Notes: generated by a model not told the origin, from the letters alone. Positions 1 to 29,822 are shown, counted from the first letter of the stretch. The stretch is DNA of 32,000 nucleotides from Nitrososphaera viennensis EN76 (GCF_000698785.1 NZ_CP007536.1:2070001-2102000); one strand, 5' to 3'. Numbers and translations: made by a program.

Positions 1-28
1 GCCTAGCCGACGGCAAATTAACAGAGCC
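1..28. repeat. 28-bp copy of the transposon-end repeat family (possible right end of an element lying upstream of the window)
   Basis: GCCTAGCCGACGGCAAATTAACAGAGCC is identical to 21415-21442. It is related to the right-end units of element A at 21299-21323 and 21335-21362. Confidence 0.6.
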
Positions 29-167
29 GAGGCGAGCAAGGTTCAAAATATTGGAGACAGTCTCTTGAAGGGCGGGGTTCTCGAGATGTGGATAAACCAG
101 AGCATGACAACTAATCCTCCGTGTGGGGTATTAGGACAAATCAGAAGCATTGGATTGCAGCAGAACT

Positions 168-9134: not shown

Positions 9135-9164
9135 CCCAGTATGTGTGCTGGCTAACTTCTCCAC

Positions 9165-9437
9165 TCACTTTTTGTCGTCCTCCTTCTTGTCCTCAGTCTT
9201 CACATCCTTTGCAGCTTGCTCTGCCAAAGTCGAAAGTATCGAACTAGGGAACAACCCCGCAGTCTCCGCACGCCTTGGACGTATTGAAACTGGTGCCAAT
9301 AGGTGTGTGATCCTGTTTGATGCCGCCTTTTCTCGCTCGTCCAGTAGCCGCTTAAGGACATCTTCAAAACTGTCCCTATTGCAACTTTCGGATGCTTGCT
9401 CTGCCATTAGCGGCAAATGTTTCATTTCTTCTATCAT
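9165..9437 (-). CDS. Hypothetical small charged protein
   Basis: 90-aa ORF with a Lys/Glu/Asp-rich tail and no recognisable motif. It competes with an overlapping plus-strand ORF (9088-9561) whose N-terminal part is Ser-rich low complexity. Confidence 0.3.
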   Translation of the reverse strand: MIEEMKHLPLMAEQASESCNRDSFEDVLKRLLDEREKAASNRITHLLAPVSIRPRRAETAGLFPSSILSTLAEQAAKDVKTEDKKEDDKK

Positions 9438-9640
9438 TCAGGGTCTCAACATTCCTGCTGCCGGCACGCATGTAATGATCATAGGTTCGTACGTTTTGGA
9501 TCAAGGTCATTTTGACTGGGCGGAAATCCATCCAGTCACATCGATAACCCCTACGAACTGACTGTACCACTTTCTAGCACACTGTCATTCTTTTCAGAGA
9601 AGGTTTTAGTACGAGCGTCATCTTTAGACCGCTCGGAAAA

Positions 9641-9898
9641 ATGAGGGAATCTCCAGAGAGCCTCATACTGCCATTCGAAACTGAAGAGCTCTACCCGACC
9701 ATCATTCTGGAACTTTGTGACAATTGCAAGTGGTCTTGTTCCTGTCTAAGCACAAAAGACACTATTGAATCATGCCCAGTGTGCAAGGCGGCCATCAGAT
9801 CCCATGTCCCAATGACGTCAGAAGAGGTCAGTCGCATCGAAATCGACAGCGAGCGCGGGATGATTCTACAGTTTAGCAGGCGAGCGCTGGTGCAATGA
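9641..9898 (+). CDS. Small Cys-rich (putative zinc-binding) protein
   Basis: 85 aa with CDNCKWSCSC ... CPVCK, a plausible treble-clef or zinc-ribbon arrangement. Confidence 0.35.
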   Translation: MRESPESLILPFETEELYPTIILELCDNCKWSCSCLSTKDTIESCPVCKAAIRSHVPMTSEEVSRIEIDSERGMILQFSRRALVQ

Positions 9899-10353
9899 TT
9901 TTCTAGCGCTGCAGACATAATAACACTCACAAAGTGTAAATCTCTACACACGCATCAGCCATAGTCTTGAGAAATAGTTGGCCCCGCCGATTATGACCAC
10001 AAATGGCTGGGTCCGGAAAAGGGGTTTACGGTGTCAAACGGGTGTTGCTTACGTCTGGCACCCGATGAAACTATCTACGATTGTGCTGACTACTACTACC
10101 ACCACCATTGCCTCGCCAGGCTTGCCATCCAAGTGGGGAACAACTTTGCTTAGAACCCCTCGTTTAATGTTCTTGGCGTGTTGCCTAGCATGCAGAGGTT
10201 GCTCTCTCTCCAGACTCTCTCTGTTCTGAAGGGTTGAAGCTTCCTAATGCCATTCCTGATAAACCCACACGTAGGATCAACCAACATTTTCCTTGTGCCT
10301 TACCTTTGGGTGTGTGTGTACATGTGCGAGGGTGTGGCTGGAGCGGGGGAATT

Positions 10354-10812
10354 CTATTGTGCCAAGAGAGGAAATTGCGACATGTACATTAGCTCGGGAT
10401 CTTCTCTTCTTGATTTCTCGTACATTTTCTTGCCAAGGTCCTTCAATGTTACTATGCCAGTCAGCCTGTTATCTACAACTATTGGCAGCCTCCGTATGTT
10501 GTATTTCGCCATTATTAGCGAGGCTTCAGAAACGTGCACTTCAGGTCCTACTGTGACAAGAGGTTGCGACATGACATCTGATGCCCGCACGTTTTTCGGA
10601 TCCTTGTATTCTGCCAGTACCTTTCTAACAATGTCTCTTTCTGTAATTATCCCAATGGGCTTGGCATCGTCATCGACTATTATTATTCCTCCTCTGCCCT
10701 TTTCTTTCATCTGAATTGCAATATCTTGGATGGATTTTGAGGGGCCAGCAGTGTCCAACGGGGGGCGCGTCATTATCGATTCTACTGTTGTGAGAGCGCT
10801 CTCTTTATCCAT
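10354..10812 (-). CDS. CBS-domain pair protein
   Basis: 152 aa with two CBS repeats (IMTRPP...GIITERDIVRKV and VMSQPLVTVGP...RRLPIVVDNRLTGIVTLKDL). Confidence 0.85.
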   Translation of the reverse strand: MDKESALTTVESIMTRPPLDTAGPSKSIQDIAIQMKEKGRGGIIIVDDDAKPIGIITERDIVRKVLAEYKDPKNVRASDVMSQPLVTVGPEVHVSEASLIMAKYNIRRLPIVVDNRLTGIVTLKDLGKKMYEKSRREDPELMYMSQFPLLAQ

Positions 10813-11026
10813 TCTGAATCATCCTTCTCTCCCAACTATCGAGAGATTCTCAGATGTTTTCATAACTAATATACGACTGTCTCTAATAAAAGAGAATACC
10901 TTTAGTTCTTTAACCTGACTGTCATTACACAAGACACGCAAGGCAAGTTGCTTCAGGTTAGCGTTTGGGCCGACGTACACACACTGCCCGCAATCCAATA
11001 AGCACTAAAAATAGCCGTTCTTCCTT

Positions 11027-11054
11027 TTTTCTCTTTTCTCTTTTCTCTTTTCTC
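11027..11054. repeat. Heptamer microsatellite (TTTTCTC)x4
   Basis: Four tandem TTTTCTC units read directly from the sequence, inside the 850-bp gap between the CBS and helicase genes. Confidence 0.6.
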
Positions 11055-11540
11055 TTTACAAATTTTCCTTGTAAAACGCAAGGCGCATCTAACCCCCGCT
11101 CGAAGGATTGTACGCTCCGCAAATCGAGTTTCCTTATCAATCATGCCGGCGAGAGGGAAAGGTTGTTACACCAATCAAGCGATAGCTAAGAGAACTAAAG
11201 ATGAAGCAAAGAGGAAGACCTTCTAAGGTTTGCATACTCTGAGAATATTTGCTATCAGATGATGGTACAGAGTGGCACCCACGCGACATATACATCCGCG
11301 CCTCCTTTATCCGCATATAGAGGTCCTGCTTCGGATGTCCAGTTCAGTCCAAGTCCTTCAAAAGCTATTTTTTCTTGTACTCTTCGATCAAAAACTGTAT
11401 AATATCCTCAAAGGAGGCACAAACCCAACCTTAAATTAGTTCCTTAATACCTGACGCGCCAACAATACTTGATGATGCCAGCTAGCGCAAGCCGTGTCCA
11501 AAACATGTGCGGGAGCGTTTCTTTTGAACGCATTTCATGC

Positions 11541-11560
11541 GGGGGGGGGGTGGTTGGGGG
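11541..11560 (+). repeat. G10 homopolymer followed by TGGTTGGGGG (G-quadruplex-prone tract)
   Basis: GGGGGGGGGGTGGTTGGGGG read directly from the sequence. It is followed by four TTATGCA(C) motifs at 11563, 11584, 11592 and 11615. Confidence 0.7.
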
Positions 11561-11659
11561 TTTTATGCACGGCCGTGCTCATTTTATGCATTTATGCACG
11601 CTCAAAATTTGGCCTTATGCACGCGCCTTGTATACGGCACATAAAACATGCGCAATATT

Positions 11660-17699: not shown

Positions 17700-18074
17700 C
17701 TAAAAAGTTGCCTGCTGCTTCATCGCGTTTACCAGAGCCGACATGTGGATGTCGTTCTTTTCAAACTGGAGGAGTATCTGGTCGCGGGAAAGGTTGAACT
17801 CCATCGACTTTATCCTGCTCCTGTAATAGACGACCTTCTTGCCCTTGCCGTCCAGCTCTATCTTCTCGATAAAGAGTATGCCCACGTCCTGCAGCTTCTT
17901 TATCTTTTTGTACGTCGAGCTGAGCGGGAGGTTGTTTTCGACGGACACCTGCGCGGCCGTCTTGGGCGTGTCTATGGTGGACATTATCAACCTGTACGAG
18001 ATGCCGTCAACAAGCTCCTGGAGGAGGGGCATCGCGGTGGCATGGCTGTCAAACGTGAGCGCGTTCATCGTCAA
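17700..18074 (-). CDS. ArsR/winged-HTH family transcription regulator
   Basis: 124 aa. ISYRLIMSTIDTPKTAAQVSVENNLPLSSTYKKIKKLQDVGIL is a typical wHTH followed by a beta wing (KGKKVVYY). The likely true start is ATG at 18066-18068. Confidence 0.7.
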   Translation of the reverse strand: MTMNALTFDSHATAMPLLQELVDGISYRLIMSTIDTPKTAAQVSVENNLPLSSTYKKIKKLQDVGILFIEKIELDGKGKKVVYYRSRIKSMEFNLSRDQILLQFEKNDIHMSALVNAMKQQATF

Positions 18075-18111
18075 TTAGGCAGGCCTAATTAGGTAAGCCT
18101 AAGTATTTAAA
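18073..18111 (-). promoter_or_regulatory. Promoter region of the wHTH gene: TATA-like box plus palindromic operator candidate
   Basis: TATTTAAA at 18104-18111 lies about 35-40 nt from the start codon. A perfect inverted repeat AATTAGGC-AG-GCCTAATT at 18073-18090 lies between the TATA box and the start. Confidence 0.4.
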
Positions 18112-18190
18112 CAGTCTTGCGGGGTTCTGTTACGTTCTCGTGGGTTGTGCGCGTGTACGGGTCGTGTTAACTTTCGTGGGCTCACAAAAA

Positions 18191-18610
18191 TCAATACGCG
18201 TTGTTTTCCTTCCAGATTCTAACGCGCCACCATGCAACATAAACAGGTGCGCTAATAATCAGCCAAAGCAAATACACTAGATTGCTGTTAGCCGACCCTA
18301 TTACCGTCAACACTAGCGCGAGCGAGCCGTATCCTTTAGCACCGAAAAGTTGTTTGAGGTTTTGGTGTTCAGGCACAAGTGCTACAATGATTGAAAGAAG
18401 CAAGTACATGCCAAGGAATCCCGCCCATTCCGCAAGTTCGATAGTGGCAAGCATGACAATATACGGAACTACATTGAAGATGATCGTCCATCTGCTAACA
18501 AACCACGATTCGACAATGATGCCCCAAAAGATAGTGAAAATCGCTACCAGTATAGCGCCTTGCGTCGGGTCAAGAATGGGCACTGTAATTTGTTCTAGAA
18601 AACTTGTCAA
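18191..18610 (-). CDS. Integral membrane protein (about 4 TM), passenger of element A
   Basis: 139 aa and strongly hydrophobic. The stop lies 9 nt inside the left subterminal repeat. Confidence 0.6.
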   Translation of the reverse strand: MTSFLEQITVPILDPTQGAILVAIFTIFWGIIVESWFVSRWTIIFNVVPYIVMLATIELAEWAGFLGMYLLLSIIVALVPEHQNLKQLFGAKGYGSLALVLTVIGSANSNLVYLLWLIISAPVYVAWWRVRIWKENNAY

Positions 18611-18819
18611 TTAGCGCACTAGATAAGTTTGATGTTGATATGGAGATATTCCTGAACAAGCACATTCTAAGAATGAGCGCTGAGGATAATCTAAGGTCAA
18701 CCATCAAACTATTCGGCAAGTACAAACCGCATTGCGTGCCTTACATTCTAAAGAAATTCAGGAAAAGAAAATGCGATTGCTGCAATGGCACTGGTTTTCT
18801 TGATGATCACTCATCTTGA
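18604..18819 (+). CDS. Possible small protein with a single DnaJ-type CxxCxGxG motif
   Basis: 71-aa ORF (TTG start, internal ATG possible) ending in KCDCCNGTGFLDD. It overlaps neighbouring ORFs at both ends. Confidence 0.25.
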   Translation: MSISALDKFDVDMEIFLNKHILRMSAEDNLRSTIKLFGKYKPHCVPYILKKFRKRKCDCCNGTGFLDDHSS

Positions 18820-18992
18820 GTAGCAGTACCTGCCTCAATCTCAATATGTTTGTTCTTGACGATAAACTTGATTGTTTCAGGTTGTCCGAGAGCGTCATAC
18901 ACGGGTTTAGGGATAGAACTCTGTGCTCCGCGTCCTTCGCTAAAGTTAACCCCCACTTCAAATTCAGTAGCGTCTTTCTTCCACTTGGGCAT
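18807..18992 (-). CDS. AbrB/SpoVT-like small DNA-binding protein (candidate element regulator)
   Basis: 61 aa. SSIPKPVYDALGQPETIKFIVKNKHIEIE fits the swapped-hairpin AbrB pattern (xIPkxxxxxLG...). It is divergent from the transposase across the operator-like array. Confidence 0.5.
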   Translation of the reverse strand: MPKWKKDATEFEVGVNFSEGRGAQSSIPKPVYDALGQPETIKFIVKNKHIEIEAGTATQDE

Positions 18993-19018
18993 TACTCACC
19001 ATCCACCTTACAAAGCGG

Positions 19019-19095
19019 TATCTTCGTATATAACGGTATCTCCGAAGATAACAAAAGGTATTTATATCTACGAAGATATCGTATCTACGAAGATA
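19019..19095. promoter_or_regulatory. Array of four quasi-palindromic TATCT-NCGA-AGATA sites upstream of and overlapping the transposase start
   Basis: TATCTTCGTATA at 19019-19030, TATCTCCGAAGATA at 19037-19050, and TATCTACGAAGATA at 19065-19078 and 19082-19095. Confidence 0.5.
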
Positions 19096-20231
19096 TGACA
19101 CCACCGCCAACAGCTCCGACACGACAACTAGACCGCAACGAAAAGGCGCAAAAGATTGTATGGACTAAAGGCCAAATCAAGCGTTACAACGAGAACCACT
19201 ATGTTGTACAGTCGCAGTCTGGCCGCGGTGCGTACGTTGTCATATCCACAGAAGCAGGCTGGAATTGTACGTGCCCTGACCACAGCTACCGCCAAGTGAA
19301 ATGCAAACACATCCTTGCAGTCGAGTTTTCGATAGAGCTGCGCAAGCAGGTGCAGTCATATGTAAACGTCATTCCAGAAGTCGCGGTAAACTCCTGCAAG
19401 TACTGCGCTTCTGAAAACATCAAGAAGGACGGCCTGCGCCACAACAAGTACGGCGACATTCAGGTATTCCTTTGCAAAGACTGCAACAGGCACTATACCG
19501 TAAACATCGGCTTTGAAGGAATGAGAGCAACCCCGCAGATGATTACAACAGCAATGCAGCTATACTTTTCTGGGGAAAGCCTGCGCTCGGTGCAGAAGTT
19601 CCTTAGACTGCAAGGTGTTAACATGAGTCATGTCGCGGTGTACAAGTGGATAAAGAAGTACGTCGCTCTGATGCAGGGCTATCTCGACAAAATCACTCCA
19701 AAAGTGTCTAGCACTTGGCGCACGGACGAAATGTATGTGAAAGTGCAAGGCAACATGAAGTACCTCTATGCCCTAATGGACGACCAGACAAGGTTCTGGA
19801 TTGCGCAGCAGGTCAGCGAAAGCAAGTACGTCCAAGATGTTAGGCCGATGTTCATTGACGGCGCAGCTACGGCAAAGAAAAAGCCTCGCGTACTAATCAG
19901 TGACGGCGCGCAGAACTTCCACGTTGCATGGAAAAAGGAGTACAAGGATGAAAAAGCCGTACACATCCAGCACATCCACATCAAGGGCGACAACAATAAC
20001 AACAAAATGGAACGTATGAATGGAGAGATCCGCGACCGTGAAAAGGTCATGCGCGGCCTAAAGAAAATCGACACTGCAATCTTGCAAGGGTATCAACTTT
20101 ACCACAACTACTTCCGCGAACACGAAGGGTTAGATGGCAAAACACCAGCAGAAGCAGCGAACATCCAGATTAAGGGAGCTAACAAGTGGATTACTGTGAT
20201 TCAGAACGCATCAAGAGACCTGATCAACTAA
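19095..20231 (+). CDS. IS6/IS26-like DDE transposase with N-terminal SWIM zinc finger and zinc ribbon
   Basis: 378 aa from ATG 19095. The track ORF upstream extension overlaps the AbrB-like gene and is rejected. SWIM CTCPDHSYRQVKCKH, ribbon CKYC...CKDC, and DDE blocks WRTDEMYVKVQGNMKYLYALMD, LISDGAQNF and NNNNKMERMNGEIRDREKVMRG resemble IS26 DETYVKV, TD and NNRIE..H..K.R. Confidence 0.9.
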   Translation: MTPPPTAPTRQLDRNEKAQKIVWTKGQIKRYNENHYVVQSQSGRGAYVVISTEAGWNCTCPDHSYRQVKCKHILAVEFSIELRKQVQSYVNVIPEVAVNSCKYCASENIKKDGLRHNKYGDIQVFLCKDCNRHYTVNIGFEGMRATPQMITTAMQLYFSGESLRSVQKFLRLQGVNMSHVAVYKWIKKYVALMQGYLDKITPKVSSTWRTDEMYVKVQGNMKYLYALMDDQTRFWIAQQVSESKYVQDVRPMFIDGAATAKKKPRVLISDGAQNFHVAWKKEYKDEKAVHIQHIHIKGDNNNNKMERMNGEIRDREKVMRGLKKIDTAILQGYQLYHNYFREHEGLDGKTPAEAANIQIKGANKWITVIQNASRDLIN

Positions 20232-20237
20232 GAGAAG

Positions 20238-20468
20238 TTGAGAGCCATAGAACAACTCATGGACGTACTCAAGATAATAGGAAAAGTTTCACCAATCATA
20301 TTGCTTTTAGGACTTGTCTTGTTCGAGGTATTAGTCCTATACGAGCATAGAGCAGACAATCTATTGCCAATCATTTTCTTGACATCATTCGTGATGATCA
20401 TGGTGGGAATAATTGGTACTTTGTGGACATATGTGATGTACCCAAGATTATTTTCTCGGACTGGTTAA
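20238..20468 (+). CDS. Small two-TM membrane protein, conserved passenger
   Basis: 76 aa with two hydrophobic helices, immediately downstream of the transposase. A positional counterpart sits at 27415-27612 in element B. Confidence 0.45.
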   Translation: MRAIEQLMDVLKIIGKVSPIILLLGLVLFEVLVLYEHRADNLLPIIFLTSFVMIMVGIIGTLWTYVMYPRLFSRTG

Positions 20469-21182
20469 GATGGGAATGAGTGAGATGGCTGCACCGATTA
20501 CTGCAAGAGGAATTGCTAGATATACCGCTGCGCGCCCAAGTTCAACCTGCTGAGAATCCTCAAGAGACACTATGTTTATGAAAGCAGAATTGCTAGCTAT
20601 GACGTTCGCAGTACCACTAGTCTCATTGAAGTTTGTTCCCAAAAGTATACCAAATTGGCCGCCCGTAGCATACCGTATGGTTCCTGTTCCCTCATAATTG
20701 AAACCATTTGGATTATGCACTTTATCTTTAACATTGACTTTTTGCAGGAGAATGGCGCAGGCATTTTGCGAACCGTACTTATCAACAGTACCTTGCGGAC
20801 AAAAAGTACCGTCAAATGTCAACAAGAAATATGAGGGTAGATCGGAATAGCCTAATCCTCCCTCTCCTCTCAGTTGATGGTTTGGAGCTAAGCGGCTGTA
20901 TACTGTGATATTTTTTTGTGCGGCGATCGAACCTTGAGACTCTAGATTTACTGTGATGTACATCGTTTCGTTGAGTTTAGCAGGATTCGAGATGTTGAGA
21001 AAATATGGAGCAAACGTACTCTCCCTTGACACAACTTGGTTAATTTGCAGGATAACAAAGCCTGATGAGATGCTAATTGCGAAAATTATCGCACCGGCGA
21101 TGGCTAGTCGTACCTTTAGACTAGGCTCAAGAGGAGAATTTGGATTAATAGGCGGTCTTTTATCGGGATTCCTTCTTACCAT
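20448..21182 (-). CDS. Doubly membrane-anchored extracytoplasmic protein, conserved passenger (paralog of 26695-27465)
   Basis: 244 aa with N- and C-terminal TM helices. Shared blocks with the element B protein are NITVYSRLAP/NITAFAKLQP, YFLLTFDGTFCPQGTVDKYGSQNAC/YFLWFDGSYCPTRPVDVYSSIPQC and IRYATGGQFGILL/IRYATAGVYGVAL. Confidence 0.7.
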   Translation of the reverse strand: MVRRNPDKRPPINPNSPLEPSLKVRLAIAGAIIFAISISSGFVILQINQVVSRESTFAPYFLNISNPAKLNETMYITVNLESQGSIAAQKNITVYSRLAPNHQLRGEGGLGYSDLPSYFLLTFDGTFCPQGTVDKYGSQNACAILLQKVNVKDKVHNPNGFNYEGTGTIRYATGGQFGILLGTNFNETSGTANVIASNSAFINIVSLEDSQQVELGRAAVYLAIPLAVIGAAISLIPILTSPRK

Positions 21183-21370
21183 GAGGAATTGCGGCCACCC
21201 AAGCTGCGGTCTGACGATGCCAATTTCACCAGCTTAACCATTGCCAAGCTCACGAGAGTGTCATAAAAAGGTGATCTGTGTACAGAAAAATCTTCCATGC
21301 CTAGCCCACGAAAGTTAACGGCCTTTCAAAATCAGGCTAGCCCACAGTAAGTTAACAGAACCTCTTGCGG

Positions 21371-21442
21371 GGTTCTGTTAACTTATCGTTTGCTCAATGA
21401 TATATGAGACAGATGCCTAGCCGACGGCAAATTAACAGAGCC
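21371..21442. mobile_element. 72-bp MITE-like remnant made of two abutting element ends
   Basis: It starts with GGTTCTGTTAACTTATCGTTTG (left-end type) and ends with CCGACGGCAAATTAACAGAGCC (right-end type). The ends are inverted relative to each other at about 15/22 by eye. No clean TSD was seen. Confidence 0.4.
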
Positions 21443-21706
21443 TGCGGCCAAATTCCGAAGCAGTCTTTAGTTTATCAGAGGCCCGTTTCGTCTTCAGACA
21501 TCCTGAAAACATTCGGCTGCAAAAGGTCAACTGCTATCCTGTTATCGCTACCGGCAGTTATTTTCACTATCGGTTAGCCTGCAAAATCAATTGCGATCAC
21601 GCCCGATCTTGCAGCCTTTAGCATCTTGCCCAGCCAGCTACCTCGTCGCCTTGGCCTATGTGCAGATGCTTGTTGTCTAACATGGCTGCTGCATAAAATG
21701 CGACTA

Positions 21707-22009
21707 TTAGGAGGTTGAAGCTGCTAACGTTCTCTGCCTATCTTCTTCCTCTTCTGCAATCCTGTGCGCCTCCGCAGTGACTACAACCTTGCCATTGACG
21801 GTCCATCTTGCCGCTCCCAGGTCCTGTCCGTCTGGCCCTTGAGCCTTTGGCATGTCGATAACAAGGTTGTCGAAGGTGTACGTCACAGAAGCGCCTTTGC
21901 CCTTGAGCCTGTCAAAAAGCTGACCAATTATTTCTGCCCATTGCGACGACATTTGGTGCGTGCCACTATCCTTGTCCTTCTGGCTCGCATCCCGCCTGCT
22001 GTTACTCAT
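21707..22009 (-). CDS. Hypothetical small protein (possibly amphi-Trp-like, unverified)
   Basis: 100-aa ORF with a charged N-terminus, a helix (WAEIIGQLFDRLKG), then a beta-rich segment (VTYTFDNLVIDMP...WTVNGKVVVTAE). Confidence 0.5.
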   Translation of the reverse strand: MSNSRRDASQKDKDSGTHQMSSQWAEIIGQLFDRLKGKGASVTYTFDNLVIDMPKAQGPDGQDLGAARWTVNGKVVVTAEAHRIAEEEEDRQRTLAASTS

Positions 22010-22142
22010 ATACGAGAGAGGTATGCGTGGCTTTCAATTAAAACAGTTTACTTTGCAGTCTCTCTATTCCAAAACCGCAAAGATGTGGGTCTCTGCATCT
22101 GACCTTCAAAAACACAGAGAAATCCGCTGAGTGAACAGAGAA

Positions 22143-22673
22143 TTAGCGTCGGACCCTTCTAATCCTGATGAAGAGTGCGTTTTCTGTAATCTGGGTTTCA
22201 GGTTTGATGTTCATGAATCCTGATGCAGCATGTTCCATAAGCCGACTGAGATAGTGGGACCAATTCTCTCCCATGTTGTGCTGGATTATAAGAATACGGC
22301 TATCCTCGCTTATTTCGTGGCGATAGTTAAAACCCGAGACCCTTATCCATCTCTCAAAAAGCTCAAAAATCGATTCTTCCGTACGCTCTTTTGTCATGAT
22401 CATCATGGTTTCATCCGTCAAGCCTCTGGCGACATCCTCCGCCAGCGCATCTACCTGCTCTTTGGTCAGCGAATCAAACAGCCTCTTGATCACTCCCTTG
22501 CGTATCGGGATAAATCCTGCTCTTGCGGCGTTTGCGTACCATTCAATATGGGATCTTACAATCTGATTCAATAACGTGTTGAGGTTGATTTGTTTCTGCT
22601 CAGCCTCTAGCCTGAGTTGGTCAAGCATTGCTTTATCAAACCTGAATGTGGCGGCTTCAGTATGATTGGTCAA
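22143..22673 (-). CDS. Ribbon-helix-helix (CopG/Arc/MetJ-type) regulator with a C-terminal domain of unknown function
   Basis: 176 aa. The N-terminal ATFRFDKAMLDQLRLEAEQKQINLNTLLNQIV fits the RHH strand-helix-helix pattern. Confidence 0.7.
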   Translation of the reverse strand: MTNHTEAATFRFDKAMLDQLRLEAEQKQINLNTLLNQIVRSHIEWYANAARAGFIPIRKGVIKRLFDSLTKEQVDALAEDVARGLTDETMMIMTKERTEESIFELFERWIRVSGFNYRHEISEDSRILIIQHNMGENWSHYLSRLMEHAASGFMNIKPETQITENALFIRIRRVRR

Positions 22674-23380
22674 GTCTAGTTGACCTAGAACGCATTCTTC
22701 GGTCTTTTATTATTTTTGGAATATTTAATGTTAATATCCTATTTCTTGTAGAAAATATATGATACAAAATTATGTAATTTGCATTGAATGTGGATGTCAT
22801 ATGAATAAAACACGAAAATATTGTGCAATATGGCTGACTGATGTGCACATTTTGTCCCAATATTTGGGTCCGCCATGTTAGATATTTTACACAAAGTACA
22901 CAATGTACTCATATTGCTTATAGCAAGGTTTTGTAACAAAAGACGTGCATATACCCCAAAGAAAGCCACCGCCCCTCTCCTCGTCAGTTAAAGGTGCGTC
23001 TTCTGTTGATGAGCTGGGGCAGGCTTCGTGTTTAGGTTGTTTACGCGGATGGTGGCGACCATGTATACAAGAGAACACGATAGATATGATGATGACGATC
23101 TTGTGTGTTCCCGCATGATGCAATAGCCGCCGTCTGACAAAGAACATCATCATGACGCGACGGCCGGTAACGCAAACAGGAGCGCGCGTGTGCATGTGAA
23201 AAAAGCCAGGGTGAGCCGCCACACCGCCACTGCCCTCGATAGAGGGAGAAGGAGATCATCCCTCCTCTTTTTTCTGTTGTTCAACAAACGCCGAGGCAAA
23301 ACCTTAGCTGGTTCAGGATCTATTGAAAATTAATTATTCCCTGTTCTGTTGAAGAATTCTCAAGTTACCCTTCTCAACGC

Positions 23381-23386
23381 TTTAAA
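23381..23386 (+). promoter_or_regulatory. TATA-box candidate (TTTAAA) for the 144-aa secreted protein, leaderless geometry
   Basis: CTCAACGCTTTAAAGCC lies about 29 nt upstream of ATG 23412. The context CTCAA(C/T)GCTTTAAA is shared with the paralog promoter at 24116-24132. Confidence 0.45.
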
Positions 23387-23411
23387 GCCATAGGGACCTG
23401 ACCGGCCCTTG

Positions 23412-23846
23412 ATGTCAAGCATAAGGCACAACAGGACGGCGATGCTATCATTTGTGATGGTAGGTGTCGCACTTGCATCATTATTCATCTTTGTTGCTTC
23501 GACCCATGCGTTTGCCCAAGGAGGCCAAGGTGGCGAGGGCGCCGCAGGCTCCGGCGGGAACGAGACTGCCGCGCCTGAAGTTGCTCCAGAAAGACTAAAG
23601 TTCTTTGACAAGCACGACCCTGCGCACACATGGAACGAGACTGCGCTTTCATACTTTGATTCAAAAGGAACAGAGCTGATGTGCGACAAGGTGTACAACG
23701 GCACCATCTACTATCAGATCAATGAAAACTTGTTCAAGTGCGACGACTTTGGCCTCTTTATAGCTGGCGACGAACAGGCCATGACGACAAACGGCAAGGA
23801 CGGACAGGACGGGCAAGATGGACAGGACGGCAAGGATGGAGTCTGA
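23412..23846 (+). CDS. Secreted Gly-rich protein with a collagen-like (G-x-D) tail and a conserved Cys-containing domain
   Basis: Signal peptide ending HAFA-QGG, followed by GGQGGEGAAGSGG. The domain FFDKHDPAHTWNE...MCDKVYNGTIYYQ...FKCDDF is shared with the 291-aa paralog. The tail is GKDGQDGQDGQDGKDG. ATG 23412 is preferred to TTG 23409. Confidence 0.75.
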   Translation: MSSIRHNRTAMLSFVMVGVALASLFIFVASTHAFAQGGQGGEGAAGSGGNETAAPEVAPERLKFFDKHDPAHTWNETALSYFDSKGTELMCDKVYNGTIYYQINENLFKCDDFGLFIAGDEQAMTTNGKDGQDGQDGQDGKDGV

Positions 23847-24126
23847 CTCCTTTTTTCTTTGCAGCAGCAACAACGGTATTTTATTGTCGTCATCCCTGCA
23901 CATCTGTTCGCGACTTAAGCCGCGGCCAAAGGGAAACTCTGGATATCGGTCTTTTGAGCTAGAAAATACCATTGACGACTGAATTAAGGCAGCGGTGCGA
24001 GATGCCATTGCCTTCACATCATCCAACATTGTAAATCACATAGCCGATACATTTTACATAATGACATAAAATCTCCCTCTAGAATTAATGGTTATAATCA
24101 CATTATGAGTTCAGGCTTCTCAATGC

Positions 24127-24132
24127 TTTAAA
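24127..24132 (+). promoter_or_regulatory. TATA-box candidate (TTTAAA) for the 291-aa secreted protein, leaderless geometry
   Basis: CTCAATGCTTTAAAACA lies about 28 nt upstream of ATG 24157. Confidence 0.45.
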
Positions 24133-24156
24133 ACATTGACAGCATGGTAACGCAAG

Positions 24157-25032
24157 ATGTCGAATAACAACAACATCATCAAAAACAAAACGGCACTCCT
24201 ATCAATGCTGATAGTAGGTGCCGCAATAGCATCATACGCCTTTGGCGCGCCAGCCAACGCGTTTGCTGCCGGCGACGGCGGAAACGGGGGTAACGGCGGA
24301 AATGGCGGCGACGGCGGCGATGGAGGACTCCTCATTGGTAACGGCGGCGACGGCGGAAACGGGGGTAACGGTGGAGATGGCGGCGACGGCGGAAATGGCG
24401 GCGATGACGACAGCGAATACAAGAAGCACTGGAAGAACGATGACGCTGAAGACCACGTATACAAGAAACACTGGAAGACCAATCATGACGACGATGACGA
24501 TGACAGCAACGATGAAGATGAAGACTATGGAAACAAGAAGCACTACAGCAACAATGATGATGACGACTATGACAGAAAGTACAAGAGATACTACAACGAC
24601 GACGATGACAAATACTATGGCCCAAAGCACTTCAAGTACAAGGAGAAGTTCAGTGACGACGATGACGACGGGTACTACTACAGCGAGCACTGGAAGAAGA
24701 AGTTCAAATATCACCACGACGAAAGCTACTACAGCAACGTAAAGATCATCATCCACAACAACTACTATAACGACTATGACGCAGGCTCATTCTATGTGCA
24801 CTTTGACAACGAGGACTATGACAACGACGACAGCACAACGGTCTTCAAGTTCTACGACCAGCACTTTGAAGAGCATCAATGGGATGAGGAAGGCAAGTTC
24901 TACTACGACGAGGACGGAAACGAGTACCAGTGTGATGACTTTTACATGGGAAGCGTCTACTACGACTTTGACGGTGCCTTCTACAAGTGCGACGACCTGA
25001 CGTTCAGCGAAGACTTTGAAGAAGGCTACTGA
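24157..25032 (+). CDS. Secreted low-complexity protein: (GGN/GGD) repeats, then an Asp/Tyr/Lys/His-rich region and a conserved C-terminal domain
   Basis: 291 aa. Signal peptide ending NAFA-AGD, then GDGGNGGNGGNGGDGGDGG twice (a DNA tandem repeat of about 63 bp at 24281-24393). Poly-D/Y/K stretches follow. The C-terminal FYDQHFEEHQWDE...QCDDFYMGSVYYD...YKCDDL is homologous to 23412-23846. Confidence 0.8.
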   Translation: MSNNNNIIKNKTALLSMLIVGAAIASYAFGAPANAFAAGDGGNGGNGGNGGDGGDGGLLIGNGGDGGNGGNGGDGGDGGNGGDDDSEYKKHWKNDDAEDHVYKKHWKTNHDDDDDDSNDEDEDYGNKKHYSNNDDDDYDRKYKRYYNDDDDKYYGPKHFKYKEKFSDDDDDGYYYSEHWKKKFKYHHDESYYSNVKIIIHNNYYNDYDAGSFYVHFDNEDYDNDDSTTVFKFYDQHFEEHQWDEEGKFYYDEDGNEYQCDDFYMGSVYYDFDGAFYKCDDLTFSEDFEEGY

Positions 25033-25312
25033 GAGTGACCTTCTCTCCCTCTCCTTTTTTTCTTTTCTTTCCTATCTTATCATATAGAGCAATCGCATGC
25101 CATTGGCACTGTGCGCAGATTGCCGTGCAGCCGGCGCAGTAGTCTTTTCCTTCTCTTTCTATATGTCCTATAACGTGAATGCGGCATGATACACGAGTCT
25201 GCTCATTTGGCGTTTTGCGTTAATAACTGACGAACATATTTTTCAATCGAGATTGACTGCAAAAGGGACACGTGCCTGAAAACTGCTATCTTGGTATTTC
25301 TTTTTCTTGTCG

Positions 25313-25519
25313 CTACTGACTCTCAACCGGCCAGTTGCTCCTCCGGTGCTTGCCCACGAGAGGTTTAAGGTGGAGAAGGAGATCCTGGAGTTGATGCAAA
25401 GACGGGTTTATCTCTCGCATCGCGCCGACATTTACTCCAAGTGCAGCAAGTCCCTCATACGTCTCTGCGATCGTCTCTTTTTCTCTTTCTTTTTCCCTAG
25501 ATGCGTACGTCATTGCCAT
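25313..25519 (-). CDS. Hypothetical small protein, translationally coupled to the upstream zinc-ribbon gene
   Basis: 68-aa ORF whose ATG overlaps the TAA stop of the 74-aa ORF (TAATG at 25517-25521). It competes with a plus-strand ORF at 25307-25573. Confidence 0.3.
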   Translation of the reverse strand: MAMTYASREKEREKETIAETYEGLAALGVNVGAMREINPSLHQLQDLLLHLKPLVGKHRRSNWPVESQ

Positions 25520-25743
25520 TATCTGCTACTACCCCCGCCTCCAGATACCTCTGGAATATTTGGAAGTTCATAGTTTGCGCTGGACAAGCACCTGGCGCAG
25601 AGCCTCTGCATGATGATTACCGTCCCTTGATCCACTTCAAATAGCGCCTCGGCAGTTGCGACATCTCCACATGTATTGCAGTAGTAGGGTTTCGACTTGT
25701 TCTTTCTCTGACCTAGGGGTTTAATGTCATAGTGTCTTAACAT
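25519..25743 (-). CDS. Small zinc-ribbon protein
   Basis: 74 aa with CNTCG...CARC (two CxxC pairs). Confidence 0.55.
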   Translation of the reverse strand: MLRHYDIKPLGQRKNKSKPYYCNTCGDVATAEALFEVDQGTVIIMQRLCARCLSSANYELPNIPEVSGGGGSSR

Positions 25744-25865
25744 ACTATCGTCAAGCAGCGACTCATTGATACTTAAGCCGTGCTCACCGGCGGAGCAGTG
25801 TGATCATTCGCTGGAATAGTTATTCACTTTTGTACTCTGTCCAAGATAGATTACAATCTGAGGTA

Positions 25866-25885
25866 ATCATAATCATGATTATGAT
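25866..25885. repeat. Perfect 20-bp palindrome ATCATAATCATGATTATGAT
   Basis: Self-complementary when read directly. It lies about 125 bp upstream of the 74-aa zinc-ribbon gene. Confidence 0.7.
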
Positions 25886-26072
25886 GCCAAGATGCCTGAT
25901 AATCTTTTAAACAGACACGCTTCTCCCGCCTGCCTGTCATGCGCGTAAAAAGTTTTTCTTCTAAAGCACAACAGCTGCAAAATCGATCCAGCCAAATTCC
26001 ATGCTTGGTTTATATGCGATTTTTTATCTGGTTAGTGGCCAGAAATAGAAATTTTGTGTACATAGAGATTCG

Positions 26073-26133
26073 GGTTCTGTCACGTTGACGGGTGATACCA
26101 CAAAATTTTCTGCCTGTAACAGCGCGGGTGATG
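26073..26133. repeat. Left terminal inverted repeat of element B (61 bp, two internal sub-repeats)
   Basis: GGTTCTGTCACGTTGACGGGTGATACCACAAAATTTTCTGCCTGTAACAGCGCGGGTGATG. The sub-repeats are CTGTCACGTTGACGGGTGAT (26077-26096) and CTGTAACAGCGCGGGTGAT (26114-26132). Confidence 0.9.
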
Positions 26134-26136
26134 AGC

Positions 26137-26679
26137 TTATTTTGTCCATTCTTGGATTATCTCAAATCGTCTGTTTCCAGCACCTAACTTTGCAATCATG
26201 CCATACTCGCCTTGCTTCCCACCTGCATAGGTATATTCTACAACATAACCAAAAGACAGTATTTTCTTATGAGGATCATCAGAGAGCTCCATGATATAGA
26301 ACTTTTCACTATTCGGCATGATGGTGCCCATTGTATTTTTATCATCTTGTCCTTTCAAATCAGCGATTGTTAGTACTTTGTCAGAAAGATCACTTTTCCC
26401 CACTGCGGATAGCGCAGGTAATCCACCATAGTTTGTTAACACCACTTCAATCTTATCTTGCGCGATCATGATTTCTTTTGTACCTATCCAAGGTCTTAAC
26501 CTACTATCTATCTGTTGTTTGGTCATCTTAGATTGCCAAACTGCAACACCCGCCGCAACTGCTGCCGCTGCTGCCGTAGCTATTTGCGCCAAGTCCAAAG
26601 CCGTCTGGAACTCGCTCAATTGATGAAATTGGCGTGCATACAAGCTCATTAAGCTAATGCTTTTATGGTGCCCTAACAA
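26137..26679 (-). CDS. N-terminally anchored beta-rich hypothetical protein, passenger specific to element B
   Basis: 180 aa from the TTG start, or 170 aa from ATG at 26647-26649. It has an Ala-rich TM segment (LAQIATAAAAAVAAGVAVW) and then a soluble domain. The stop lies 4 nt from the left IR. Confidence 0.6.
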   Translation of the reverse strand: MLGHHKSISLMSLYARQFHQLSEFQTALDLAQIATAAAAAVAAGVAVWQSKMTKQQIDSRLRPWIGTKEIMIAQDKIEVVLTNYGGLPALSAVGKSDLSDKVLTIADLKGQDDKNTMGTIMPNSEKFYIMELSDDPHKKILSFGYVVEYTYAGGKQGEYGMIAKLGAGNRRFEIIQEWTK

Positions 26680-26694
26680 GCTTGAGCTGGCTAT

Positions 26695-27465
26695 TTGGCA
26701 AATTCAAGACCGCTCATAGAGACAGTGGCAGTTCTCGCCTTCATATCTCTCATAGTTGCTGAAGGTGTCTTGGCTATCTTGAGCGTTAGTATAATTGTCA
26801 AAGCCGTAGAGCCTAGAGGTTATCCAATTGCATATCAAAGTCATGATATAGAATTGATAGATCCATCCATGCCTACCAACAACCTTCAACTGCATTTGAC
26901 TATGGCTGCGTTTGTTATTGGAGCGCAAAGCAACATCACGGCTTTTGCGAAACTCCAACCTGTAGGAGAAGATAGGGCATTGTACTCTGAACAAAACCGC
27001 ACTATTCCAGAACAATACTTTCTTTGGTTTGACGGTAGCTATTGCCCAACTAGACCAGTTGACGTTTATTCCTCCATACCCCAATGCAAACTTGAACTTG
27101 ACAGGTATCCACAAGATGACGCTGACTGGTCGAATGTGTACTGGCAAGGTACCTATAGCGACTTTCCAGATGAGTTTAGGTACAGCACAATAGGCATAAG
27201 ATATGCTACGGCTGGCGTGTACGGTGTCGCATTAACTGATTCGCCTGATCGTGTGAATCCTTCGCTATCAGAACCTTTCATTACAATATCTGATCCCAGT
27301 GTTACACATACATTCTTTCTTGGCATTGAAGCGAACCAACTTTCCCTAACCAATCTCGGACTTTCATTCTTGATTTTACTACTAACCATTGTGCCAATAC
27401 AGTTGAAGCTATTTTCATTTCTCCGACGTAAGGGCGTCTTTGGCAAGCATGACAATGCTACCTAA
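26695..27465 (+). CDS. Doubly membrane-anchored extracytoplasmic protein, conserved passenger (paralog of 20448-21182)
   Basis: 256 aa with N- and C-terminal TM helices and the shared sequence blocks listed for 20448-21182. TTG start, so the exact start is uncertain. Confidence 0.7.
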   Translation: MANSRPLIETVAVLAFISLIVAEGVLAILSVSIIVKAVEPRGYPIAYQSHDIELIDPSMPTNNLQLHLTMAAFVIGAQSNITAFAKLQPVGEDRALYSEQNRTIPEQYFLWFDGSYCPTRPVDVYSSIPQCKLELDRYPQDDADWSNVYWQGTYSDFPDEFRYSTIGIRYATAGVYGVALTDSPDRVNPSLSEPFITISDPSVTHTFFLGIEANQLSLTNLGLSFLILLLTIVPIQLKLFSFLRRKGVFGKHDNAT

Positions 27466-27612
27466 TAACCCGATTACTAGCAGGTAGATTACTATCGGCT
27501 CGCGCTGACCTGAAACGACACTATAAACCAACCACAATATGCCAATATTCAGAAGTAAGAGCATACACGCAGCAATTCCACCTTCAATTAAATCACGAGT
27601 TTGTTTCTGCAA
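27415..27612 (-). CDS. Small two-TM membrane protein, conserved passenger
   Basis: 65 aa with two hydrophobic helices. Its ATG lies 1 nt after the transposase stop. It overlaps the 3' end of the 256-aa gene convergently, as in element A. Confidence 0.45.
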   Translation of the reverse strand: MQKQTRDLIEGGIAACMLLLLNIGILWLVYSVVSGQREPIVIYLLVIGLLGSIVMLAKDALTSEK

Positions 27613-27613
27613 T

Positions 27614-28735
27614 CTAGTTTTGCAATTTGGTTGCGTTTTGGATCACGGTGATCCACTTGTTGGTGCCCTCAATCTTTATTCCCGCTTGGCTCGCTGGCGT
27701 GTCGCCGTTCAGACCTTCATGCGGTCTAAAGTAGTTGTGGTACAGCTGGATGCCTTTCAGAATTGGCGTATCGGATTTTTTCAGACCGCGCATAACCTTT
27801 TCTCTATCGCGAAATTCACCGTTCATCCTCTCCATCTTATTGTTGTCGTGCTGGTTCTTTGTCATGACACTTACCTCATGGATGGTACGCGGGTTTGCTA
27901 TTGTGAAAAATTCCCTCTTGTACGCTTCTTTATATGACCACAAGCCGTCAGTGATTATCTTCGCTGGTCTTTTGCCAGCTACTTTTTTGCCCTTTGCAAA
28001 TAGTCCTCTAGCATCGTGGCGTTCTTTGCTGTCTGCAACTTCCTGAGCCATCCAGAACCGGGTTTCGTCATCCATCATGGCGAAAAGGTACTTCAGGTTG
28101 CCCTTTACCTTGACATATACCTCGTCAGCTCTCCAAGTATCTGAAACATTCGGTGTTATCTTTTCTAGGTATTCGTTCATCAGGCTCGTGTACTTGGCGA
28201 TCCAGCGATAGGTGCTCATGTGGCTTTTCTGGATTCCCTGTAATGCTAGGAATTTCTGTATGCCGCGCAGACTTTCGCCTGAGAAGTACAACTGCATACA
28301 GGTTGTTATTACCTGCGGAGTTGCGCGCATCTTTTCAAATCCAAGATTGAACGAGAACCTTTTGCCACAGTCGCGGCATCTCCATCTCTGAATTTCACCA
28401 TGCTTTGTTTTGCGCTTGGCATCCTTTACAATGTGTGTAGAATTGCAGCTAACACAAGCCTGAGCGTCAATTGGCTTTATGGTGGCAACAACCTTTTGAA
28501 CAGTGGCGCGCAGTTTTTGGCTAAATTCAACCGCGAAAATGTGCTTGCACTTTTGACCGCGGTACATGTGGTCAGCACATGAGCATAGCCATCCGAGCTC
28601 GCTAGCAAAGATGTGGTATTCGCCGTTGCCGCTTTGCGACCTTACGTAATAGTTGGTTTCGTCAACACGCCTTACCTGACCTTTCAATTGCGCTATCGTC
28701 AAACCCTTTTGTTCGCGATTGTTGGTTGCTTGCAC
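27614..28735 (-). CDS. IS6/IS26-like DDE transposase with N-terminal SWIM zinc finger and zinc ribbon
   Basis: 373 aa with a GTG start (an in-frame stop lies just upstream). SWIM CSCADHMYRGQKCKH, ribbon CVSC...CRDC, and DDE blocks WRADEVYVKVKGNLKYLFAMMD, IITDGLWSY and NNKMERMNGEFRDREKVMRG. It is clearly homologous to 19095-20231 but substantially diverged. Confidence 0.9.
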   Translation of the reverse strand: MQATNNREQKGLTIAQLKGQVRRVDETNYYVRSQSGNGEYHIFASELGWLCSCADHMYRGQKCKHIFAVEFSQKLRATVQKVVATIKPIDAQACVSCNSTHIVKDAKRKTKHGEIQRWRCRDCGKRFSFNLGFEKMRATPQVITTCMQLYFSGESLRGIQKFLALQGIQKSHMSTYRWIAKYTSLMNEYLEKITPNVSDTWRADEVYVKVKGNLKYLFAMMDDETRFWMAQEVADSKERHDARGLFAKGKKVAGKRPAKIITDGLWSYKEAYKREFFTIANPRTIHEVSVMTKNQHDNNKMERMNGEFRDREKVMRGLKKSDTPILKGIQLYHNYFRPHEGLNGDTPASQAGIKIEGTNKWITVIQNATKLQN

Positions 28736-28736
28736 T

Positions 28737-28790
28737 TATGGCACCATAATGTATTATGGCACCATACTATATATTTGTTATGGTGCCATA
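28737..28790. promoter_or_regulatory. Three copies of the 12-bp quasi-palindrome TATGG(CA/TG)CCATA between the transposase and AbrB-like genes
   Basis: TATGGCACCATA at 28737-28748 and 28755-28766, and TATGGTGCCATA at 28779-28790. Further copies lie at 29010-29021, about 29037-29047 (GTGGTGCCATA) and 26664-26675 (TATGGTGCCCTA). Confidence 0.5.
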
Positions 28791-28792
28791 AA

Positions 28793-29020
28793 CTAATGGC
28801 GTTTAGGTGCTTGAGAGCGTTCCTTGAAAACCAGCTTGTGATCCTCGACCTTAGGCTCAAGCTCCTGCTTTTCCTTCCATCCAAGCTCGTTGACGATTTC
28901 TTCTGGAATTGTAACAACATACTTGAAGTGGTCTTTATCGTTGTAGGTGTAGGCAAATCGCTTTTGCAGTTTGACGATTCCCTTTTCTCCTTTGACCATG
29001 ACGCTCCAGTATGGCACCAT
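28793..29020 (-). CDS. AbrB/SpoVT-like small DNA-binding protein (candidate element regulator)
   Basis: 75 aa. YVVTIPEEIVNELGWKEKQELEPKVEDHKLVF fits the AbrB swapped-hairpin pattern. The start codon lies inside one copy of the palindromic motif. Confidence 0.55.
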   Translation of the reverse strand: MVPYWSVMVKGEKGIVKLQKRFAYTYNDKDHFKYVVTIPEEIVNELGWKEKQELEPKVEDHKLVFKERSQAPKRH

Positions 29021-29090
29021 AGGTTAGATAAGCGTTGTGGTGCCATAAGTTAGAAGATATTTTGCGGACGCTGCGACCGCAAAATTCGCC

Positions 29091-29151
29091 CATCACCCGC
29101 GCTGTTACAGGCAGAAAATTTTGTGGTATCACCCGTCAACGTGACAGAACC
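29091..29151. repeat. Right terminal inverted repeat of element B (61 bp)
   Basis: Exact reverse complement of 26073-26133. Confidence 0.9.
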
Positions 29152-29249
29152 GAGATTCGCTATGGTTATATTTTGTAAGGTTATCCCTTAAAAACCACTA
29201 TGAATAATTATTACCACAGCCTTAAGTGTCACGTTTTTCATAAGGACAT

Positions 29250-29822
29250 ATGAGGACAACTAGGATTGCAGGCGTAAAATCACCTACGTGGGTAAGGGCC
29301 CTGCAAATCGGAATAGGCGCTATTGCCATCGTGCTATCACTTGCTGCAATAATCTACCCTGTTCTCACGGTCGTGGCAACCTTGACAGTAGCAGCAATAA
29401 TCCTGCTTTTGTTTGGTATTGAAAATATAGTTGCGGGGATATTCGTATACAAACAAGCCCGGGCCGCTCACATTGGTCTTGGAATACTGGTCATAATACT
29501 TGCAGTTCTCGTCATGGCGTTTCCTCTAGGCGCCGCCATGTTTGTAGCGATACTGGCAGGCGTTGCCTTGATGTTTAGCGGTTTTGCAAGCATAGTGGCA
29601 GGTCTTATGGGAGTAAGCGAAAGAGCTACTGACACTACTCCGAGCAGAGGTGCCAGGATATTCAGCGTCATTGCAGGAGCGCTAGCCGTTGCATTGTCTG
29701 TTATGATACTTGCATTTCCAGCATTTGGAATAGAACTTGTGGCTATTGTGATCGGGATAGGGCTCTTGGTTTATGGCATCAGGCTGGTCGTCACGGGAAT
29801 CAGCGGCAGGGGGCAGGCCTGA
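29250..29822 (+). CDS. HdeD/DUF308-like membrane protein
   Basis: 190 aa with six predicted TM helices in repeated pairs. GIENIVAGIF and LVVTGISG are motifs typical of DUF308 repeats. Confidence 0.75.
   Translation: MRTTRIAGVKSPTWVRALQIGIGAIAIVLSLAAIIYPVLTVVATLTVAAIILLLFGIENIVAGIFVYKQARAAHIGLGILVIILAVLVMAFPLGAAMFVAILAGVALMFSGFASIVAGLMGVSERATDTTPSRGARIFSVIAGALAVALSVMILAFPAFGIELVAIVIGIGLLVYGIRLVVTGISGRGQA

Follow-up and report, generated by a model that had tools for sequence, protein, structure and literature searches.

A probable passenger-carrying IS6-family transposon inserted beside an older related end in Nitrososphaera viennensis EN76

A 32,000-bp stretch of the Nitrososphaera viennensis EN76 genome (GCF_000698785.1, NZ_CP007536.1:2070001-2102000; hereafter the window, with positions counted from its first base) harbors two transposon-like elements, A and B. 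Element A, the subject of this analysis, spans positions 18123-21362 (3240 bp), as established by reading the window and by repeat and pattern searches. The features of A, of the sequence directly to its right and of its sister element are as follows:

18115-18122, unstranded: left copy of the 8-bp target-site duplication, TCTTGCGG; relatives hold a single copy of this 8-mer
18123-18144, plus strand: left terminal inverted repeat (IR), or outer site, GGTTCTGTTACGTTCTCGTGGG, from the repeat search; its GGYTCTGT tip is common to 27 other bounded elements
18166-18182, plus strand: left subterminal (inner) site, GTTAACTTTCGTGGGCT, ~37 bp in from the outer site and matching the right copy at 17/17 positions
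18191-18610, minus strand: passenger open reading frame (ORF) of 139 aa (130 aa in one public annotation), hydrophobic and membrane-like by eye
18807-18992, minus strand: small 61-aa gene in the "regulator slot", divergent from the transposase gene and 50-66% identical in 10 related loci
19019-19095, unstranded: four operator-like palindromes, TATCTACGAAGATA, in the 102 bp between the 61-aa and transposase genes
19095-20231, plus strand: transposase gene, 378 aa, with SWIM zinc finger, zinc ribbon and DDE domain
20238-20468, plus strand: small hydrophobic ORF of 76 aa (69 aa as called publicly), directly downstream of the transposase gene
20448-21182, minus strand: convergent passenger gene of 244 aa, with an N-terminal helix, a beta-sandwich and a C-terminal helix predicted
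21303-21319, minus strand: right subterminal (inner) site, the reverse complement of the left inner site
21341-21362, minus strand: right terminal IR, or outer site, from the repeat search and end alignment
21363-21370, unstranded: right copy of the 8-bp duplication, which doubles as the 8-bp spacer between the right end of A and a resident end
21371-21442, plus strand: 72-bp miniature inverted-repeat transposable element (MITE) M1, GGTTCTGTTAACTT...AATTAACAGAGCC, with an IR matching at 18/24 positions and no ORF; an orthologous end lies in SR1, L107, L102 and L101 (see below)
26073-29151, minus strand: sister element B, 3079 bp, with a 72-bp near-perfect IR, inverted relative to A

The terminal sequence GGTTCTGTTA is found at 18123-18132 on the plus strand, at 21353-21362 on the minus strand and again at 21371-21380 on the plus strand. 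The outer IRs of A (22 nt each) are complementary at 17/22 positions (77%), while the inner 17-mer has no further copy in the window, 0.03 chance matches being expected. With its two sites each end spans about 60 bp, and in register the two ends match at 38/64 positions. Their global alignment scored 18, whereas 5000 random window pairs gave a mean of -10.9 (standard deviation 4.9) and a maximum of 11, so that none reached the score of the true pair. The terminal 10-mer with at most one mismatch occurs eight times in the window versus 1.5 times expected, and 0/100 shuffles reached eight. The repeat searches thus bear out the coordinates that an initial annotation, made from the sequence alone, had given for the ends, the inner and outer sites and the 8-bp repeat. 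Because of the third GGTTCTGTTA at 21371, the identity of the left and right flanks continues beyond the duplication to 18 nt (24/27 over 18115-18141 vs 21363-21389). Element A is present as a single copy, all public contigs with the exact transposase mapping to one site, and exact-protein look-ups for the transposases of both A and B in public data returned only contigs 100% identical to the window, from the same strain. In one of them, a Logan short-read contig, the last 24 bases (L088 3201-3224) diverge from the window at 21228, inside A, which may be an assembly artefact.

The initial annotation took A to be inserted rather than ancestral and predicted the empty site AAGTATTTAAACAG-TCTTGCGG-GGTTCTGTTAACTT. 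A search in relatives found this site letter for letter in Ca. Nitrososphaera evergladensis SR1 (L193) and in a metagenome (L107), where the junction reads ...GCAGCAAGTTAACAGAACC/CCGCAAGA/CTGTTTAAATACTT, the reverse complement of the prediction. Both loci hold one TCTTGCGG with GGTTCTGTTAACTT directly after it and lack A; therefore the duplication in the window was made by A. Orthologues of the winged-helix regulator gene on the left of A are common in Nitrososphaera (51-96% identical). The loci L101-L107, which carry 96%/92% regulator orthologues, and SR1 are syntenic with the window on the downstream side of the regulator at 86-91% DNA identity, with the conserved order of a 565-aa gene, Lhr helicase, GCS2 and aminoacyl-tRNA synthetase beyond it. 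In all these relatives an IS6-type terminus abuts the single 8-mer. The caveat in the initial annotation, that the repeat might partly reflect a pre-existing solo end, was thus well placed, such a resident end being present in every relative examined (L101-L107 and SR1); with the 8-mer present once in these relatives, the repeat in the window is nonetheless a genuine duplication.

What is left of the resident element differs among the relatives. L102 has a decayed element, with part of the transposase C-terminus, a small ORF, a homologue (226 aa) of the 244-aa gene and both types of site, inner and outer; a C-terminal transposase remnant, with 79% protein and about 72% DNA identity to that of A, is found throughout L101-L106, and merely about 16 nt remain in SR1 and L107. 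The remnants are opposite to A in orientation, with their right end facing the regulator. From these opposite-facing remnants and the surviving M1 it follows that the target of A was the 8-bp stretch immediately next to an older relative. M1 is the ancestral resident end of that older related element, reduced to a 72-bp MITE, and the insertion of A is recent relative to N. evergladensis.

End-to-end arrangements of this kind recur in the family, which was scanned in one genome per GTDB species, with 79 loci fetched. A search of 80 independent loci (868 kb) for ACAGWRCC-N(n)-GGYWCTGT, with n from 0 to 40, gave eight occurrences, all with n = 8; one match with n = 32 is again the L041 site, where an additional end motif lies upstream. 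The eight abutments are located at L013 4997, L022 1948, L041 12004, L050 8061, L065 4829, L074 3861, L075 3405 and window 21355. Four of these spacers (window, L050, L065 and L074) at the same time serve as the duplication of a complete element, and in L013 the abutting neighbour of a full element is an 85-bp MITE that has a duplication of its own. The recurrent 8-bp abutment suggests target choice at the flank of a resident end, which resembles the preference of IS26 for sites beside another IS26 and the targeting of terminal inverted repeats in the IS3 and IS30 families (PMC7986276).

Given this geometry, the junction between A, the spacer and the resident end could instead be a by-product of transposition, for example an IR-IR junction of the tandem-dimer or circle type known from IS30, IS21 or IS911, or the result of recombination between neighbouring elements. 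Abutted ends with a spacer of duplication length do occur in eight of the 80 loci, and junctions of such geometry are reactive intermediates in other insertion sequence (IS) families (PMC7986276). We nevertheless regard this origin as unlikely, since the abutting ends always come from different, diverged elements, the outgroups set the order of events in the window as resident end, then A, and, in the window, L050, L065 and L074, a second copy of the spacer stands at the opposite border of the complete element, which is the outcome of normal insertion into that 8-mer. Insertion of A next to a resident end likewise accounts better for the relatives than does the view that A is ancestral here and that the sites in SR1 and L107 arose by precise excision or by deletion across the 8-bp repeats. 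The latter is very improbable. An IS6-type element did occupy this position in the common ancestor, as seen from the remnants of L101-L106 with their 79% protein identity and from the passenger homologue of L102; however, the remnants present their right, not their left, end to the regulator, share about 72% DNA identity with A when the flanking genes share 86-91%, and have their ancestral end persisting separately in the window as M1, beside A, while precise loss would be needed in every relative sampled. A variant in which the ancestral element was flipped in place was rejected, given the ~72% DNA identity of the remnant vs 86-91% for the flanks and the persistence of M1 next to A. That the repeats are chance matches in ordinary chromosomal DNA with a degenerate transposase gene has a negligible probability: the outer IR is indeed imperfect (17/22), but an exact 17-mer stands in the same register at both ends, the alignment score was unmatched among the random pairs, and the perfect 8-bp duplication, the intact transposase, the empty site in relatives and 27 other elements of the same architecture all stand against it.

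The transposase of A matches PF13610 DDE_Tnp_IS240 over model positions 2-139 of 139 (E = 4.5e-17) and PF04434 SWIM at 24.8 bits (cut-off 19.6), with the CxCxnCxH signature present. Its SWIM ligands (C58, C60, C70 and H72), ribbon ligands (C101, C104, C127 and C130) and catalytic residues D211, D270 and E306, followed by R313, are kept in at least 26 of 27 aligned relatives. Scored against the NCBIfam IS6 model NF033587 over positions 1-201 of its 202, A reaches 116.5 bits and B 118.1, and a PDB sequence search with the transposase of A returned no solved relative. The termini of A show the GG start, the G at position 7 and the cTGTt motif of the IS6 family (GGTTCTGTTA at both ends), while the "caaa" motif after cTGTt is missing, the ends reading GGTTCTGTTACGTT and GGTTCTGTTAACTT. 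The 8-bp duplication of the family is seen in A (TCTTGCGG), in B (GAGATTCG) and in 27 further perfect 8-mers. The element does not have the compact IS6 format of ~0.7-0.9 kb, one ORF and an IR of 15-20 bp; with 3240 bp, five ORFs and two-site ends, A is therefore a passenger-carrying "tIS" rather than a simple IS. Nor does it conform to conservative insertion of the IS26 type, which leaves neither duplication nor spacer, A having a perfect duplication and an 8-bp spacer. Krupovic et al. (2019; PMC6563490 Table S3) listed two IS6 ORFs of EN76 (CP007536), at 2089095-2090231 (+) with 53.20% and at 2098687-2097614 (-) with 50.54% identity to ISDsp3; with a constant offset of 2,070,000 they are the transposase genes of A and B, respectively. 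That table gives ORFs only, and ends, duplications and cargo are absent from it (PMC6563490). The transposase genes were thus already catalogued as IS6, and it is the element structure of A that is new. We conclude with high confidence that A is an intact, single-copy, passenger-carrying IS6-family transposon of the long zinc-finger lineage, with ISDsp3 as its closest ISfinder entry, which was inserted beside an older end.

The initial annotation regarded A as a diverged member of the family of B, and the comparison agrees with it. Both elements begin with GGTTCTGT and have two sites per end and an 8-bp duplication, that of B lying at 26065-26072 and 29152-29159; their transposases, both matching PF13610 and NF033587, are 55% identical over 365 aa. 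The 256-aa gene of B is homologous to the 244-aa gene of A (33% over 107 aa, E = 4e-15) and has the same place and orientation relative to the transposase gene, and the ORF at 27415-27612 takes the position of the 76-aa ORF of A, with no detectable sequence similarity. In B the small gene encodes a 75-aa MazE/AbrB-type protein that passes PF04014 (25.3 bits vs a cut-off of 24.7), and the palindrome TATGGTGCCATA is present in three copies before the transposase start and in two upstream of the 75-aa gene (28737-28790 and 29010-29047). It differs from the palindrome of A, TATCTACGAAGATA, each being element-specific. In A, eight of the nine window matches to the TATCTACGAAGATA pattern fall inside the 102-bp region (0/100 shuffles reach nine), the last palindrome ending on the first base of the transposase ATG.

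Of the passengers of A, the 139-aa ORF was assigned to no family in profile scans and has no homologue in the related loci. The 244-aa protein had zero matches in Pfam, NCBIfam, PADLOC and PHROGs; its AlphaFold2 (AF2) model has a predicted local distance difference test score (pLDDT) of 64.5, and a Foldseek search against the PDB returned generic immunoglobulin-like sandwiches only, with TM-scores of 0.40 or less. It is predicted to be a membrane-anchored beta-sandwich protein that travels with element A. The 244/256-aa family is rare, accounting for 45 of 1.84 billion cluster representatives, and adjoins this transposase type in 6/6 cases examined, namely A, B, L025, L102, L191 and L192. Members of 220-260 aa are encoded at window 20448-21182 and 26695-27465, L102 7084-7764, L191 6001-6678 and L192 1129-1899; terminal helices and a beta-sandwich are predicted for this family, which has two conserved cysteines.

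In GTDB species genomes the transposase has 306 relatives, mostly in Nitrososphaeria and Bathyarchaeia, with a few in Asgard metagenome-assembled genomes (MAGs). The 79 loci contain 27 further elements with a GGYTCTGT IR pair and a perfect 8-bp duplication, 2031-6126 bp in length. The offset of the inner site, taken as the best internal repeat of terminal positions 5-24, is 26-29 bp at 29 of 58 ends and 36-37 bp at 16, A and B falling in the latter class. The element-specific half-site (CGTGGGCT, CGGGTGAT, CGTTTGG or CGGCGCAT) changes jointly in the outer and inner copies, a covariation that argues for sequence-specific binding by the transposase. These fixed offsets and covarying halves support two sites per end as a family-wide trait, and with it the description of A by outer and inner sites in the initial annotation. 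In 27/29 bounded elements a small gene, usually divergent, lies directly upstream of the transposase gene, and the protein types in this slot vary (AbrB/SpoVT-like, ribbon-helix-helix-like by motif, zinc-ribbon). Such pairing of different small proteins with different palindromes fits an element-specific regulator, only the protein of B passing a Pfam cut-off. The remaining cargo differs between family members. A large passenger gene of 630-785 aa is common to three of the longer members, of 4.2-6.1 kb (L004 526-2883, L026 904-3240 and L057 1064-2959). A full-length transposase relative with 54% identity is encoded on a 55-kb IMG/VR viral contig (L194 5001-6086); the whole collection of IMG/VR viral contigs holds two transposase relatives only, and viruses are therefore not an evident vehicle.

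These features would be compatible with the following mechanism. The transposase would bind bipartite sites, each with a GTTAAC-type half and an element-specific CGnnnnnT half, two per end. The transposase, or an incoming transpososome, would be recruited to a related resident end, and strand transfer on the 8 bp beside that end would yield the recurrent end-N8-end junction. By analogy with IS26, movement would probably be copy-in via a cointegrate that is later resolved. The 61-aa protein would probably bind the four TATCTACGAAGATA palindromes and control the expression of the transposase.

Several observations weigh against parts of this interpretation. The NF033587 score of A (116.5 bits) falls just under the 125-bit cut-off, and Harmer and Hall (PMC6807381) question whether either the long or the archaeal "IS6" groups should be placed with IS26 at all. 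Element A occupies the same place in three assemblies of the EN76 strain (EN76 2014, CP103305 and CP104300), so that no movement is seen among them, and the copy-in/cointegrate route suggested for A is borrowed from IS26. The 61-aa protein, the candidate DNA-binding regulator, has no Pfam match; its hhalign comparison with the B-type AbrB/MazE family is weak (probability 22%, E = 9.5e-4), and a single-sequence AF2 model (pLDDT 63) gave no match in a fold search. Finally, ungapped inner-site matches are just modestly above those of shuffles, and the two-site argument draws on the clustering of the offsets.

Two further features lie to the left of A:

17700-18074, minus strand: winged-helix regulator gene, with weak HTH_20 and TrmB matches
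1-28, plus strand: MITE M2, the right 28 nt of a second copy; the full copy, L109 9160-9231, corresponds to window -43..28

The initial annotation placed the left end of A 4 bp from the TATA-like box of the regulator gene and suspected a change in its upstream control. The box (18104-18111) is close by, as stated, but the spacing is 3 nt to the duplication, with 11 nt between the box and the first base of the element, 18123. Upstream of the box the sequence read TCTTGCGG + GGTTCTGTTA(AC...) before insertion and reads TCTTGCGG + GGTTCTGTTA(CG...) after it; because these first 18 bp upstream of the TATA region are identical in both states, the proposed promoter effect looks weaker. Judging from this sequence, the insertion of A probably left the core promoter of the regulator undisturbed, and any effect would come from farther upstream or from read-through of the leftward genes of A (139 aa and 61 aa). 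A palindromic repeat, TTAGGCAGGCCTAATTAGGTAAGCCTAA, between the TATA-like box and the start codon (18075-18102), kept in relatives and untouched by the insertion, may be an autoregulatory operator.

M1 has the hallmarks of a MITE, being 72 bp long, devoid of an ORF, furnished with both family ends and present in more than one copy. M2, at a distance of 21.4 kb, is in direct orientation and differs from M1 at two positions. Neither has its own 8-bp duplication, M1 being flanked by TCTTGCGG and TGCGGCCA and M2 by CGCGGCCA and GAGGCGAG; the outer flanks of the pair, CGCGGCCA on the left of M2 and TGCGGCCA on the right of M1, match at 7/8 positions. The two MITEs bracket a block of about 21.5 kb that includes element A and whose housekeeping gene order is conserved in relatives. 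Both block edges are synteny breakpoints in N. viennensis vs about 35 related loci: aldo/keto reductase, TyrRS and TopoVI genes lie on the far side of the regulator in relatives, and ACS is preceded there by a conserved ~460-aa gene. The 50 kb of EN76 read contain neither that cluster nor the ~460-aa gene, and a search for TyrRS homologues returned N. evergladensis and MAG proteins, with no recognisable N. viennensis entry. The G+C content is 0.45-0.47 outside the block vs 0.57 for its housekeeping genes. We hypothesize, by analogy with IS26, that this flank-MITE-block-MITE-flank pattern could be the trace of a cointegrate or translocatable-unit insertion.

To the right of M1, the region from 21443 to 32000 and on to about 34800 (L108) has a G+C content of 0.45-0.47, contains small hypothetical genes and holds B. 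Nothing corresponding to this region adjoins the regulator in relatives, so that it may represent an island specific to the strain; the integrated elements given for EN76 in PMC6563490 do not include it. Within the block, a 2.5-kb segment (9135-11659, G+C 0.46) with a CBS-domain ORF lies between the GCS2 and Lhr helicase genes and is missing in L101-L107, where these two genes are adjacent. Rfam and tRNA scans of the window found nothing, and there is no tRNA-linked integration in it.

Work on the IS6 family has centred on bacterial insertion sequences of 0.8 kb and their role in assembling antibiotic-resistance regions. Soil archaea, including ammonia oxidisers of importance in the nitrogen cycle, hold a large clade of 2-6 kb IS6-type transposons with accessory genes, two sites per end and a tendency to land exactly beside resident ends. 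As a tentative proposal, about which we have somewhat more doubt than conviction, the ISDsp3-like elements of Nitrososphaeria and Bathyarchaeia may form a distinct, undescribed, cargo-carrying IS6-type group, in which the transposase would combine SWIM and zinc-ribbon domains, the small-regulator gene would be swappable and each end would have two binding sites. Such a group would target the 8 bp flanking a resident end, build end-N8-end arrays and move chromosomal DNA by an IS26-like cointegrate/translocatable-unit route, the 21.5-kb block being a trace of it. If this were true, the block would be the first indication of such a mechanism in archaea. The two sites per end, the swappable regulator slot, the linked cargo and the N8 abutment are of specialist interest, and the loci offer natural sequence data for the study of end-targeted insertion, which is the least understood property of IS26, as well as a candidate tool and marker for genome rearrangement in organisms without genetics.

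Reviews of the IS6 family (PMC6807381, PMC7986276) describe elements of about 0.8 kb with an IR of 15-20 bp and include no thaumarchaeal members. Like A, the bacterial IS26, IS257 and IS1216 have the DDE_Tnp_IS240 domain, the GG tip, the G at position 7, the CTGT motif, an 8-bp duplication and a preference for insertion beside a resident copy, and IS26-type direct copies bracketing a segment with an 8-bp flank repeat are similar to the M2...M1 block of the window. Unlike A, they are small (about 0.8 kb), have a single ORF and an IR of 14-20 bp, and lack subterminal sites, zinc fingers and cargo; the "caaa" IR motif of core IS6/IS26 is, in turn, missing in A. Targeted insertion of IS26 is conservative, without duplication, and its incoming unit shares the resident IS, whereas A made a duplication and its end stays 8 bp away from the resident one.

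The long clostridial IS6 elements (clade h/VII, such as ISCpe7; clade i/VIII, such as ISTet2) share with A an N-terminal CxxC zinc-finger extension ahead of the helix-turn-helix and DDE domains, in transposases of 340-450 aa. They differ in being bacterial and 1.2-1.8 kb long, without passengers, with SWIM unreported and with IRs mostly lacking a GG start (PMC6807381). The short archaeal IS6 elements (ISPfu, ISMja1 and ISNamo12-like, the last with six copies in N. viennensis) resemble A in the domain of their host and partly in the post-E motif E-x6-(K/R)-x-R, which the transposase of A contains as E306...R313, R315. They belong to a different clade, with 0.7-0.75 kb, a single short transposase and neither zinc fingers nor cargo.

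ISDsp3 of Dehalococcoides sp. BAV1 is the closest ISfinder relative of both window transposases, at 53.2% and 50.5% (PMC6563490 Table S3), and no other IS6 member is recorded as having a passenger gene (PMC6807381 Table 4, PMC7986276). Compared by description, it is like A in its 8-bp duplication, its long IR (28/36) and its passenger. It is, however, 1456 bp long, with a 319-aa transposase lacking an intact zinc finger, and a bacterial phylogenetic singleton, whereas A has 3240 bp, a 378-aa transposase with complete SWIM and zinc ribbon, a regulator-slot gene and three passengers, and is part of a large archaeal radiation of 306 relatives.

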